Shown here: in pieces, positions 5,260-30,131 of the stretch | Position numbering within the stretch: position 1 is the first letter of the stretch | Layout: each line of letters starts with the position of its first letter | DNA from: Promethearchaeia archaeon | GTDB taxonomy: Archaea > Asgardarchaeota > Lokiarchaeia > Sigyniarchaeales > SOKP01 | NCBI GenBank assembly: GCA_029856155.1 | Contig: JAHQWL010000052.1 | Span: 96,001-160,000 of the forward strand | Direction of reading: 5' to 3' | Length of the DNA stretch: 64,000 nt | Program-made: the position numbers and the translations under genes | Notes under the pieces: generated by a model | What the model was told of the DNA's origin: nothing | Databases searched by the model: none | What the model saw: the letters and a program-made list of their open reading frames with translations, nothing else

Positions 5260-5417
5260 AAAACCTTCTAAAATTTATATAGAATATAAATTTAGCCATC
5301 TCCCCATTATATAAACTGAAGTTCGGAATATTGAACGAAAATCCTTAATTTATCGGTTGGATAATTTATAACTAATTCAAATTAATTTAAAAAATATTAA
5401 AAAGTGTGTGATTAAAA

Positions 5418-5672
5418 ATTACGCAATATCGTTTCAGACTTACTGGTGTTCCTCCAGATCAAGCTATAAAACTAATAGAATTAGATCCTAACAATTCTAT
5501 AGCAGAAATTAAAAAGACTGTACAGCGAGAGTATAAATTAAATCCAATTTTAGCCATACAATTCATTTTTAAAGGGAAAGTGCTACCTGACCAACTAAAA
5601 TTTGCAAAGATTGGAATTCATCCAAAAAAAGACGTAATTACTGTTATGGCTACGCAAGCTGGTGGATTTTAG
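5418..5672 (+). CDS. Ubiquitin/SUMO-like protein, 84 aa, probable ATT start (absent from ORF track)
   Basis: Manual translation: ITQYRFRLTGVPPDQAIKLIELDPNNSIAEIKKTVQREYKLNPILAIQFIFKGKVLPDQLKFAKIGIHPKKDVITVMATQAGGF*. Contains FIFKGKVL and a GG near the C-terminus; in-frame TGA at 5409 bounds the 5' end. Confidence 0.88.
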   Translation: MTQYRFRLTGVPPDQAIKLIELDPNNSIAEIKKTVQREYKLNPILAIQFIFKGKVLPDQLKFAKIGIHPKKDVITVMATQAGGF

Positions 5673-16294: not shown

Positions 16295-16663
16295 ATGGAA
16301 GCTTTAAAGCATACTGAAGAAGATTATGAAAATATTGAATGTACGGTATATCAATCCAAATTTATTGATGAAATATCCACATTTTTATATCTTATTATAA
16401 AAATTCCTAAATCTGCTATTAGAGGTATCGTTTGGAATGCATTAAGAGATTGGCAATTAAAGAATAATAAAACTATAGCTAAAATAGCAGAAATGCCAAT
16501 TGGGATAAGATTAAATGCCGTTAAGGAGATATTTTACTTTGGGAGAACTATTTTAAAAAGAATGTTAAATGATCCCAAAGCTAAAAGTGAGATTATTATT
16601 GACATCGCATTTGAAAAAGCGTTTAAATATTACCTTAATTACTTAAATAAAAGTTGTTCTTAA
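16295..16663 (+). CDS. Hypothetical protein
   Basis: ORF; in-frame ATG at 16295 is preferred over TTG at 16259. Confidence 0.55.
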   Translation: MEALKHTEEDYENIECTVYQSKFIDEISTFLYLIIKIPKSAIRGIVWNALRDWQLKNNKTIAKIAEMPIGIRLNAVKEIFYFGRTILKRMLNDPKAKSEIIIDIAFEKAFKYYLNYLNKSCS

Positions 16664-16697
16664 ACACTTACAGGCAAAAAATAAATAATAGATAACT

Positions 16698-26943: not shown

Positions 26944-27702
26944 TTAATGTTCATGTCCTCCAACTATTAATATAAAGCCCATAATGATAATACCTAACAT
27001 TACTAAAATTAATTGTCTTATGATTTCTTTTGTACCTGTCTTTTCATGTAATTTTGGTGTTAAATCCGATAATGCTATGTAAATAAAACTAGCTGCTGAG
27101 ATTGCTAAAAATATTGGTGTAAGAAAGGCAAAAATACCAATAATATAATAGCTAATAATAGCAGCTGGTATTGTAGATAAGCTAGATATTAAATTATAGA
27201 TGAATGCTTTTTTTTTTAGCATTCCACCGTGAAGGAGTATGCCAAAATCGCCTATCTCCTGAGGTATCTCATGAATTATTATTGTAATACCGACTGCAAT
27301 ACCGATATTAAAATCTGTAATAAAGGCAGTTGCAATAAGAACTCCATCTGTAAAATTGTGAAAAGCATCTCCTACAAGAATTATAGATGCTGTAGCATTA
27401 CTATGAACTTCACAACTGTTATTTTGACAATTCCGCCAAATTAGAAATTTTTCTAAGAAAAAGAAAAATAGAATACCTCCTAATATAAAATACATGATTG
27501 AATGAGGGTCACCTGGTGAACTCTCGATCGCTTCAGGAATTAAACCTAAAAATGAAGCAGTAAGTAATGTTCCTGTCGCAAATGAAATTAAAGCAGAAAC
27601 GATTCTCTTTTGCATATTTTCTTTAAAAAGAATGAAGCCTGAAGCTGCTAGTATAGCCCCAACACTTCCAAAAATACTAAACAAAATAATCCAAATTAAC
27701 AT
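26944..27702 (-). CDS. ZIP-family divalent metal transporter
   Basis: FATGTLL, GDAFHNFTDG, HEIPQEIGDF, YIALSDL. Confidence 0.92.
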   Translation of the reverse strand: MLIWIILFSIFGSVGAILAASGFILFKENMQKRIVSALISFATGTLLTASFLGLIPEAIESSPGDPHSIMYFILGGILFFFFLEKFLIWRNCQNNSCEVHSNATASIILVGDAFHNFTDGVLIATAFITDFNIGIAVGITIIIHEIPQEIGDFGILLHGGMLKKKAFIYNLISSLSTIPAAIISYYIIGIFAFLTPIFLAISAASFIYIALSDLTPKLHEKTGTKEIIRQLILVMLGIIIMGFILIVGGHEH

Positions 27703-27722: not shown

Positions 27723-28478
27723 TTATAATATGGATTTTAACATAAATATTAATATCATTGTAATTATTCCAGCAAACAGTAAAATCAGTTGTCTTAAGCT
27801 ATGTTTTAATCCTAATTTTTGATGCAATTCAGGTGTTAAATCTGATAAGGCAATATAAAGAAAACTTGCTGCTGAAATTGCTAGAACATAGGGAATTGCC
27901 AAGGAAATTAAATCTAAAAGAAAATACCCTATTATTGCAGCAGGTATGGTTGCAACTCCTGAAAGAAGATTATATAAAAAAGCTTTTTTTTTTGAATAAT
28001 TCTTATCAATGAGTATTGCTAAATCGCCAATCTCTTGGGGAATTTCATGAGCTATAACAGAAAGACTAATAGCAATTCCAAAAGTAAAATTAATTAAAAA
28101 AGATGCGGCAATTACAATACCATCTACAAAATTATGAAATGCATCACCTATAAGAATAACTGGACCTGCAGCTTCACCCGTTACAACACACTCAGCGTCG
28201 TGACAATGACGCCAAATGACCAATTTTTCAAGAATAAAAAAAAATATAAGACCTCCTAAAAAGTATGTCATTACAATTTGTATTGCATCTCCCGCTTTCG
28301 ATATAGCTGTAGGAATCATTCCCAATGATGCTGCGGCTAGTAACGTACCCGTAGCATAAGCAACCAAACTGGAAACTAGTGATTTTTGAATATTTTTAGT
28401 TAAATTAAGAAAAATAAAAGCTAAAACTATAGCTCCAATACTCCCTAAAACACTAAACAATATAATCCATAGAAGAAT
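27723..28478 (-). CDS. ZIP-family divalent metal transporter (tandem paralog; ATT start)
   Basis: HNFVDG and HEIPQE motifs. Extending to ATT at 28476-28478 gives ILLWIILFS, which aligns with MLIWIILFS of the paralog; TAA lies directly before the ATT. Confidence 0.9.
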   Translation of the reverse strand: MLLWIILFSVLGSIGAIVLAFIFLNLTKNIQKSLVSSLVAYATGTLLAAASLGMIPTAISKAGDAIQIVMTYFLGGLIFFFILEKLVIWRHCHDAECVVTGEAAGPVILIGDAFHNFVDGIVIAASFLINFTFGIAISLSVIAHEIPQEIGDLAILIDKNYSKKKAFLYNLLSGVATIPAAIIGYFLLDLISLAIPYVLAISAASFLYIALSDLTPELHQKLGLKHSLRQLILLFAGIITMILIFMLKSIL

Positions 28479-28537
28479 TTATTATCACTTCAAATAGAAA
28501 TAAAATTATTTTTTTTAGTTTTTTAATTAATAAAAAT

Positions 28538-28555
28538 TTTACGATTCATCGTAAA
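28538..28555. promoter_or_regulatory. Palindromic operator, probably for the DtxR-family regulator
   Basis: TTTACGAT-TC-ATCGTAAA perfect inverted repeat about 60 bp upstream of the ZIP-ZIP-DtxR operon. Confidence 0.65.
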
Positions 28556-28691
28556 TTTTTACATAAAATCATATAAATTAATCTCTATTAAATTTTCTCA
28601 CAAAAGAACAAAGGTTGTCAAAAGGACTTAATAATAAAAAAACCCAATTAATTAATAAATCAAAATTAATATTTGTCTTAGAGGTTATTTC

Positions 28692-30131
28692 ATTATTAAA
28701 AAATCACTAACTCTAACTTGTATAGAATGCAAAAAAAAGTATGAATTTACCTCTATTCAACATAAATGTCCTGAATGTAAAGGACTATTATGGTTTGAAG
28801 TTAATTTAGAAAGATTTAGACAACAATTCTCTGAAATTGAAGCTATAAATAAATTTTGGGATTACAAATTTGCACTTCCTCAAGTACAGGATGATTTTAT
28901 TGTTTCATTAGGGGAAGGGGGTAGTCCTTGTAAAAATTCAAAAAAATTTGGAGAAAAATTGGGATTAAAGTTCTTATTTTTTAAAGATGAAACTCAAAAT
29001 CCAACTAATTCTTTTAAAGATCGTGCGGCAGCATTATTAGTTTCTCATGCGCGTAGTTGGGATTATAAAAAAATTATCTGTGCTTCAAATGGTAATCAAG
29101 GTGCCTCATTAGCAGCATATGCTTCTGTAGAAGGAATGAGTTGTTTGAATATCATCCCAAGAATAATTGATGTAGGAAAAAAAGCTCAAATGATCGCGTA
29201 TAACTCCGAATTAGAAGTAATTGGAGAGACTGTTGATGATGCTATTGAAGAACTATTAATACGAAAAAATATTACAGATTTCTATCAAGGTTCTCCTGAT
29301 TTGAATCCACTTACCCTTGAAGCCCAGAAAACCATCGCTTATGAAATAATTAAACAGGTTGAAGAACCAAATTGGATTTTAATCCCCATGGGAAGTGGAG
29401 AATTATTAGTAAGTCTATGGAAAGGATTTCATGAGCTTCTAGAGGCTAATGTCATAAAGAGGCTTCCAAAATTAGTTGGTGTCCAATCAGAAGCCTCATC
29501 TCCCATTGTGGATGAATTCTTTAAAGATAAGGGGAGTATTCTGAAAAATCAAGAAATTCAAAATTCTATAGCCCTAGGAGTTTTAGTAAGAAATCCTATA
29601 TATAAAGATTTAGCTATTAAATGTATTAGGGAAAGTGAAGGCACTGTAATGTCAATTCTGGAGGAAAATATATTAAATTCAATTGATAAACTAGTAAGAT
29701 ATGAAGGAATCTTTGCAGAACCCGCATCAGCTTTAACTATAGCTGCAGTTCAATCATTGCAAAATAAAAATGTGTTTGATGATAATGAAAAAATTGTATG
29801 TCTTATCACTGGTAGTGGACTAAAAGCACCTTACATTTTAGAAGCGTTATCATCTCAAACAAAAACGACAGGAAAAGGTTCAATTATTATAACAAAATTA
29901 AAAATATTATCTCAAATATCCCTATCTGGTGAAAAAGGGATTTATGGAAGTAAAATCCATGAAATAATAAGCCCTGGTAAAAAAATTTCTGGAATTTATC
30001 AGCACTTGAAAGATTTAGAATCAAAAGGTCTAATAATGCGAAAAAAAGAAGGAAAACATATATTGTATTTTATAACTGAAAATGGAAAAAAAGTTCTTGA
30101 TGCATTAGATGTCCTAATTACACTCCTTTAA
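28692..30131 (+). CDS. Threonine-synthase-fold PLP protein fused to a C-terminal winged helix (probable ATT start at 28692 or 28695)
   Basis: Upstream in-frame extension encodes a CIEC...CPEC Zn ribbon and SLGEGGSP; NPTNSFKDR PLP lysine; EGIFAEPASA; ITGSGLK; C-terminal wHTH (IYQHLKDLESKGLI...YFITENG); GAGGT at 28681. Confidence 0.88.
   Translation: MIKKSLTLTCIECKKKYEFTSIQHKCPECKGLLWFEVNLERFRQQFSEIEAINKFWDYKFALPQVQDDFIVSLGEGGSPCKNSKKFGEKLGLKFLFFKDETQNPTNSFKDRAAALLVSHARSWDYKKIICASNGNQGASLAAYASVEGMSCLNIIPRIIDVGKKAQMIAYNSELEVIGETVDDAIEELLIRKNITDFYQGSPDLNPLTLEAQKTIAYEIIKQVEEPNWILIPMGSGELLVSLWKGFHELLEANVIKRLPKLVGVQSEASSPIVDEFFKDKGSILKNQEIQNSIALGVLVRNPIYKDLAIKCIRESEGTVMSILEENILNSIDKLVRYEGIFAEPASALTIAAVQSLQNKNVFDDNEKIVCLITGSGLKAPYILEALSSQTKTTGKGSIIITKLKILSQISLSGEKGIYGSKIHEIISPGKKISGIYQHLKDLESKGLIMRKKEGKHILYFITENGKKVLDALDVLITLL

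Follow-up and report, generated by a model that had tools for sequence, protein, structure and literature searches.

Three genes in the stretch of archaeal DNA analysed here appear to start translation at ATT. The stretch (hereafter the window) is 64,000 nucleotides long and comes from a Promethearchaeia archaeon of the class Lokiarchaeia. The genes encode a ZIP zinc transporter (ZIP2), a protein of the threonine synthase family (ThrC) and a ubiquitin-like protein (Ubl). Judged from sequence comparison, we are confident that all three are intact genes with AUU starts led by a Shine-Dalgarno (SD) sequence, and that such starts are a habit of this organism and of its Lokiarchaeia family. Very probably, a few per cent of its genes begin at ATT, or at ATA, just behind a predicted ribosome-binding site. 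The modelled shares are about 2-4% for ATT and about 1-2% for ATA, with a few starts at ATC and CTG, which are probably used as well. The support comes from the absence of canonical starts, from ATT codons that are conserved or exchanged for ATG, from the association with SD sequences and their spacing, and from the protein domains that would otherwise be lost.

The window forms part of contig C52 of a metagenome-assembled genome (MAG) of 4.10 Mb with 30% G+C, and its closest public relatives are labelled as Promethearchaeota or Lokiarchaeota MAGs. The contigs of the MAG contain no 16S rRNA, and for this reason the anti-SD sequence was taken from general knowledge and from the G-rich peak observed at positions -14 to -8. 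We used GGAGGTGATC as its complement and counted 5-mers of this sequence as SD matches. Throughout, canonical starts are ATG, GTG and TTG, and ATH stands for ATT, ATC or ATA. The coordinates of the main features are collected in Table 1.

Table 1. Start regions, genes and control features in the window
Feature	Position	Strand	Remarks
SD-like GTGTGAT of Ubl gene	5406..5412	+	Includes in-frame TGA 5409-5411
Ubl ATT start codon (predicted)	5418..5420	+	Normalized SD spacing 6
Ubiquitin-like gene, 84 aa	5418..5672	+	Ends ...QAGGF; stop included; PF00240 profile
ZIP1, tandem paralog of ZIP2	26944..27702	-	Internal control with ATG start at 27702-27700
ZIP2 coding sequence, 251 aa	27723..28478	-	ZIP zinc transporter; stop included; Pfam PF02535 117.2 bits
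ZIP2 ATT start codon (predicted)	28476..28478	-	First codon after in-frame TAA; normalized SD spacing 6, the ATG optimum
In-frame TAA directly before ZIP2 ATT	28481-28479	-	
SD-like GAAGTGAT of ZIP2	28484..28491	-	GTGAT is a 5-mer of GGAGGTGATC, 5 nt before ATT
Conserved ThrC leader/promoter region	28620..28691	+	TTAATAATAA, with palindrome ATTAATTAAT; ~90% identical in 8 genomes
In-frame TAA closing ThrC frame upstream	28656..28658	+	
SD GAGGT of ThrC	28681..28685	+	6 nt before ATT 28692, 9 nt before ATT 28695
ThrC ATT start codon (most likely)	28695..28697	+	Normalized SD spacing 7, against 4 for the adjacent alternative ATT 28692-28694
Threonine-synthase-family gene, 478 aa	28695..30131	+	N-terminal CxxC...CxxC zinc ribbon, PALP domain, C-terminal winged-helix tail

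The ThrC frame is open from the TAA at 28656, and the first ATG, GTG or TTG within it is the TTG at 28959, 89 codons after the ATT at 28692. The initial annotation had pointed to this gap of 89 codons and to a GAGGT 6-9 nt before ATT, and both were found exactly as described. Starting at TTG 28959 would cost the protein 88 residues, among them the CxxC...CxxC zinc ribbon. At the start site, 18 of 26 genomes of the family have only ATT or ATC, four have ATG, three GTG and one TTG. The four ATG codons (G017, G196, G161 and G069) fall exactly on codon 28695, the GTG codons lie a few codons upstream and the TTG directly precedes the site. The ortholog P0016 in the database also begins with a methionine at the codon that matches 28695. 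This ATT is unchanged in eight genomes, our own and seven MAGs with ThrC proteins that are 69-87% identical; in those seven the start reads ATT or ATC followed by the invariant ATT, without an ATG. An (A)GAGGT or GGAGG was present upstream in 17 of the 18 ATT/ATC-only genomes and in none of the seven genomes with ATG or GTG. Because the orthologs place ATG or methionine at codon 28695, and because of the SD spacing, we take ATT 28695 rather than ATT 28692 as the most likely start. Counted from this codon, residues 7-471 align with positions 2-441 of NCBIfam PRK05638, and the PALP domain matches PF00291 with 206 bits. Of the threonine synthase profiles, TIGR00260 scored 167.1, exactly its cut-off, and PRK05638 scored 326.9, below its cut-off of 421.

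ZIP2 lies next to a paralog, ZIP1, with an ordinary ATG start, and profile searches identified both as ZIP transporters, ZIP2 well above the PF02535 gathering score of 35.1. The start of ZIP2 reads TAA ATT CTT CTA TGG (protein ILLWIILFS) and that of ZIP1 reads ATG TTA ATT TGG (protein MLIWIILFS). An ATT where the paralog has ATG, a TAA just before it and an AAGTGAT upstream had all been noted in the initial annotation, and each proved exact. Among ZIP orthologs from 12 related genomes, and among paralogs, ATT, ATG and TTG replace one another at a single aligned start codon. The alternative canonical codon, TTG 28460, lies six codons into the frame and is not conserved, being ATA in G008 and ATT in G018, the two closest orthologs. 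The ZIP profile alignment begins at profile position 17, and the ZupT profile aligns from near its first position.

The Ubl start region reads GTGTGAT TAAAA ATT, in agreement with the earlier description of GTGTGAT followed by ATT. A GTG about 55 codons in is the sole in-frame canonical codon before a C-terminal ATG. The protein belongs to the ubiquitin family, scoring 36.8 with PF00240 against a cut-off of 25.4, with profile positions 11-71 aligned to residues 17-80 and a C-terminal Gly-Gly. The ATT is kept in 14 genomes of the genus, and the codons that follow vary synonymously (ACG/ACC/ACA/ACT, CAA/CAG). ATG occupies the same codon in two genomes of the genus and in three from other families, and in a sixth genome, from another family, it lies one codon upstream. 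Most of the 13 relatives with the Ubl ATT share GGGTGTGAT; G002 has AAGGTGG instead. A 5-mer SD match was found in all ATT genomes and a weaker match or none in the ATG genomes. The ATH starts would then depend on the SD sequence, with the cross-genome SD pattern of ThrC and Ubl being a trend among kin that carries no statistic.

Taken together, ThrC, Ubl and the gene for the initiation factor aIF1, discussed below, have no canonical codon before their conserved N-terminus. The normalized SD spacing of the three window genes (Ubl 6, ZIP2 6, ThrC 7) is that of canonical starts, for which the ATG peak is at 6. For all three, comparing the N-termini of orthologs gave either an ATT that was kept, under constraint, or a canonical ATG or TTG at the same aligned codon, as expected if the initial annotation was right.

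The same comparison bears on whether these codons could be G-to-T sequencing or assembly errors, or belong to decaying pseudogenes. The genome is a MAG in 104 contigs with 5.7% contamination, which gives the idea some footing. However, related MAGs keep the ATT or have ATG or TTG at the aligned codon, which excludes both sequencing error and pseudogenes. The same ATT recurs in many independently assembled MAGs, the frames are intact with synonymous variation downstream, and the signal extends over the whole genome and is specific to ATT and ATA codons with SD spacing. We regard the chance that error or decay accounts for the ATT codons as negligible.

The genome-wide signal was measured in long open reading frames (ORFs), in the part located 15 or more codons ahead of the first ATG, GTG or TTG. 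SD 5-mers were found 3-10 nt before 33 of 500 ATT codons and 22 of 368 ATA codons, about three times as often as before other codons. The normalized spacing had its peak at 6 for both ATG (range 4-7) and ATA, and at 6-7 for ATT. In contrast, the control codons AAT, TAT, TTA, AAA and TTT were depleted at ATG-like spacing and peaked at 3, 9 and 12, as would be expected of codons next to a real start. At a spacing of 5-7 we observed a match for 26 of 500 ATT codons against 37 of 6749 (0.55%) non-ATH codons, a 9-fold difference (Fisher p=3e-13); ATA (10/368, p=0.003) and CTG (3/39, p=0.006) were also enriched. Counted conservatively, 97 genes had an extension of 15 or more codons that looked strongly coding, and 44 of these had an ATH codon with SD near the 5' end of the extension, compared to 11 for a control codon triple. 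SD use as such is a minority practice: about 36% of starts carry a match of 4 or more nt, and about 15% one of 5 or more.

To estimate the share of each codon we fitted an expectation-maximisation (EM) start-codon model to 3356 genes, leaving the weight of each of the 61 codons free and beginning from uniform weights. With an SD term the model gave ATG 72.5%, TTG 11.2%, ATT 3.8%, GTG 3.5%, ATA 1.9% and ATC 0.3%. Without the SD term ATT fell to 1.7% and ATA to 0.6%, and the ATT and ATA calls still carried an SD as often as the ATG calls (0.13 vs 0.11). Calls of AAA, AAG and GAA were near background in their SD content (0.05 vs 0.03) and are noise of the model. The weights that the model placed on AAA and AAG were rejected as real starts, as these codons showed no SD enrichment and had the control-codon spacings of 3, 9 and 12. 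Among 3713 genes, with ORFs down to 60 codons, 104 had an ATH posterior above 0.5. The three ATT genes among about 60 in the window are in line with the 2-6% seen genome-wide. The initial annotation had called AUU starts routine in the lineage. Their recurrence, conservation and genome-wide spread, with 1.7-3.8% of genes at ATT and 0.6-1.9% at ATA once ATT is allowed in the start model, uphold that claim, with the qualifications that at about 2-6% of genes they are not the norm and that ATA is used besides ATT.

Protein domains gave a further line of evidence. In 10 of 20 ATH+SD candidates scanned with Pfam, a domain lies ahead of the first canonical start, aligned from profile position 1-5 and beginning 3-32 residues from the ATH codon. 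These domains are actin, Ras, ThiF (E1-like), a response-regulator receiver, an ABC ATPase, rubrerythrin with a rubredoxin-like domain, ApbA, Band_7, a hexapeptide transferase and Ish1. Evidence against the ATH start was found in none of the 20 candidates scanned. For ThrC, ZIP and Ubl the NCBIfam and Pfam alignments begin at profile positions 2, 17 and 11, respectively, and within the first 7-17 residues after the ATT, so that profile position 1 would fall no more than about 7 residues from this codon.

These results also speak to the reading that a gene finder would adopt by default, in which each gene starts at its next canonical codon (TTG 28959 for ThrC, TTG 28460 for ZIP2 and the internal GTG for Ubl) and the upstream frame is untranslated. 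The database protein for ThrC of the window, the 390-aa P0003, follows it, and ZIP2 would lose just six residues. Against it, the 88 extra residues of ThrC are conserved as protein and match both full-length profiles and orthologs that start with methionine, Ubl would shrink to about 30 residues, aIF1 has no canonical start before codon 86, and ten Pfam domains in other genes of the genome would be truncated. Even in ZIP2 the TTG is unconserved in the closest orthologs. Starts at the next canonical codon are therefore very improbable in our view, and AUU starts account better for the conserved N-termini.

Several points nevertheless count against AUU starts as we describe them. The two adjacent ATT codons of ThrC are not separable with certainty, although 28695-28697 is most likely the one used. 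In ZIP2, TTG 28460, six codons 3' of the ATT, could in principle serve as the start. The ATT share is model-dependent, at 1.7-3.8%, and the weight given to AAA and AAG in the EM reveals that the boundaries of coding potential are imprecise. The related genomes are kin, and counts across them overstate their independence. Finally, the set of tRNAs recovered is incomplete, so a dedicated initiator for AUH codons could exist.

Several observations concern individual genes with such starts. A ThiF/E1-like gene (C52:86628-87365, +), about 9 kb upstream of the window, starts at ATT; ThiF profile positions 1-236 correspond to its residues 10-242, and a canonical start first appears 68 codons into the frame. 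On this contig, about 15 kb separate it from the Ubl gene with its own ATT start. An actin homolog (C26:83436-84578, -; PF00022, 435 bits) also starts at ATT, with the first canonical start 34 codons inside the domain, and a Ras-family GTPase (C88:63853-64464, -) starts at ATC/ATT, with the first canonical start 89 codons inside the domain.

The gene for aIF1 (SUI1; C34:43740-44054, -, equivalent to L058:1477-1791) contains no ATG, GTG or TTG before codon 86 of 105. Its ATT lies 8 nt after a GTGAT, behind AAGGTTGTGA, and the aIF1 profile aligns from near its first position. ATT or ATC is kept at this site in 19 genomes from five genera of the window's family. The start is GTG in one genus of this family, f1, and TTG, ATG or GTG in families f2, f14, f15 and f28. 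aIF1 thus resembles infC of Escherichia coli in having a conserved non-canonical start on the gene of a proofreading factor. In an alignment of 20 aIF1 sequences we found no substitution private to the family that uses ATT.

Which tRNA would read these codons is a related question. The genome contains an initiator tRNA-Met with a CAU anticodon, an A1:U72 pair and three G-C pairs in the anticodon stem, and since this ordinary initiator is present the simplest model is that it reads AUU with a mismatch at the third position. The tRNA gene, at 16556-16666 of a 47248-nt contig, is interrupted by a 32-nt intron immediately 3' of the anticodon loop. Alternatively, initiation at AUU and AUA could be real without mismatch reading by the ordinary initiator, for instance through a dedicated initiator-like tRNA whose anticodon is of the Ile type, an initiator whose anticodon is modified, U-to-G editing of the RNA, or the use of Ile as first residue. 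Use of AUH codons at the per cent level is far above the mismatch tolerance of model prokaryotes, and the tRNA complement was recovered incompletely, with aragorn reporting only about 23 tRNAs in the MAG, many with introns. However, the canonical initiator tRNA (CAU) is there, and a simple pattern search found no initiator-type anticodon stem with a NAU anticodon, though genes containing introns would escape such a search. ATT, ATA, ATC and ATG also interchange freely at one site, which fits near-cognate reading by one tRNA. We consider these alternative routes improbable, if somewhat less so than starts at the next canonical codon, and favour mismatch reading by the ordinary initiator.

Under that model, the SD sequence in the mRNA leader would pair with the 3' end of 16S rRNA and so put AUU into the P site at an AUG-like spacing. 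The ordinary initiator tRNA (CAU) would most likely read it with a third-position mismatch, and the protein would begin with Met. The stringency of start selection may be relaxed or tuned through aIF1, which by analogy may regulate its own synthesis through its weak start codon. More tentatively, we propose a feedback loop in this one Lokiarchaeia family in which aIF1, translated from AUU, sets the stringency, and a defined set of SD-led AUU/AUA genes, including those for eukaryote-signature proteins such as actin, Ras/Arf-like GTPases, Ubl and the E1-like enzyme, forms a translational regulon that varies with aIF1 activity; we think this possible and on balance doubtful.

The initial annotation had spoken of "this lineage". 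In the samples examined, AUU starts are concentrated in the Lokiarchaeia family of the window and do not extend to all Asgard archaea. The non-canonical starts of aIF1 and Ubl are found only in the family or genus to which the window belongs. In 800 kb of G026, an equally AT-rich genome from another family of the same order, ATH codons at SD spacing were not enriched (2/164 vs 13/1093). Four 800-kb subsamples of our own genome gave 5-12 ATH matches against 4-12 for all other codons together. These samples are small, and a weaker habit elsewhere could have been missed. The EM model is unreliable on 400-kb samples, in which subsamples of our own genome gave 0 to 5.4% ATT. For a 400-kb sample from another family of the phylum (G067, L149-L168) the start model gave about 31% TTG starts, an unusually high share, together with frequent SD sequences.

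The claim that annotations truncate these genes was borne out by the public ThrC-family predictions. Among the 120 best database homologues, about 60% span 95% of the query or less, and the lengths of these homologues cluster at 385-390, 404-416 and 439-447 aa. In the alignment, N-termini are cut back at various downstream codons, among them that of P0003, the window's own entry; the 446-aa P0035, which comes from a closed MAG chromosome, is truncated as well. One homolog shows the opposite. P0002 (Loki_b32) is annotated from directly after the upstream stop (MKINIYLRGYFIIKK...), with its SD falling inside the coding sequence, and is probably mis-started 11-12 codons too early.

Gene callers that allow only ATG, GTG and TTG will cut N-termini in these genomes and may drop small genes. 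The parts at risk include the zinc ribbon of ThrC, the P-loop of a Ras-like GTPase, the loop of actin that binds phosphate and possibly the Ubl gene in its entirety. Such cuts would distort the predicted structures, domain inventories and phylogenies of just those proteins that make Asgard archaea an object of study. The use of AUU and AUA at the per cent level appears far above that of model prokaryotes and includes the proofreader aIF1. Such use, in a lineage whose initiation factors are of the eukaryotic type, makes it possible to test directly how the stringency of start-codon choice evolved.

Two non-coding elements near the window genes are also worth recording. Over the 70 nt upstream of ThrC, genomes share about 90% identity, more than the ThrC proteins themselves do (69-87%), and this stretch contains the palindrome ATTAATTAAT. 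The winged-helix tail of ThrC (29990-30128) gave a weak PadR match here, and the tails of relatives match PF03551/PF01638. The conserved leader with its palindrome, combined with this tail, suggests that the enzyme may bind its own leader or promoter. Between ZIP2 and ThrC, at 28533-28560 and 55-80 nt upstream of ZIP2, there is a 13-nt inverted repeat (AAAATTTTACGAT / ATCGTAAATTTTT), which is possibly the operator of a putative metal-responsive repressor. In at least seven related genomes, ZIP orthologs are preceded at a comparable position by a CGTAAAT motif.

Near-cognate initiation directed by an SD sequence is itself known, and what we describe is a new, lineage-wide form of it. Our search of the literature found no systematic description of ATT or ATA starts in these archaea. 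The only precedent found is the AtubA tubulin gene of a lokiarchaeial Kariarchaeaceae member, for which a 'rare ATT start codon' with a plausible ribosome-binding site was reported and the database entry was too short (PMC13394414). That gene resembles ours in belonging to the same class of archaea, in having ATT at a plausible distance from the binding site and in having an N-terminally truncated entry. However, it was a single-gene oddity recognised from structure prediction, whereas the starts described here are recurrent, conserved and genome-wide, and include ATA. According to a 2026 review, Lokiarchaea rarely have SD sequences (PMC12993045), which fits the minority SD use measured here.

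AUU starts are very rare in E. coli, where the known examples are infC, encoding IF3, and pcnB. The mRNAs are likewise SD-led, AUU is read by the initiator tRNA, and the gene of a proofreader, here aIF1, has the weak codon. Autoregulation of IF3 through the AUU of infC has been discussed previously (PMC4705826). Unlike in E. coli, where very few genes are involved, the habit here extends to a few per cent of genes, the organism is an archaeon with the eukaryote-type factors aIF1, aIF1A and aIF2, and autoregulation is in our case inferred.

Animal mitochondria use ATN starts (NCBI tables 2 and 5). In both systems ATT, ATA and ATC are routine beside ATG in a very AT-rich genome. The mitochondrial system differs in having no SD, a modified tRNA-Met and AUA as Met in elongation, whereas the starts described here are SD-dependent and we saw no change in the code. 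In eukaryotes, near-cognate initiation at CUG, GUG, ACG and other codons is governed by eIF1 and eIF5, and eIF1 autoregulates through its own poor start context. The archaeon shares with them a homologous proofreader (aIF1/eIF1) with a weak start site on its own gene. The difference lies in how the start is chosen. Eukaryotes scan from the cap and favour CUG, with AUU and AUA among the weaker near-cognates, whereas in this Lokiarchaeia family the choice of site would be directed by the SD sequence.

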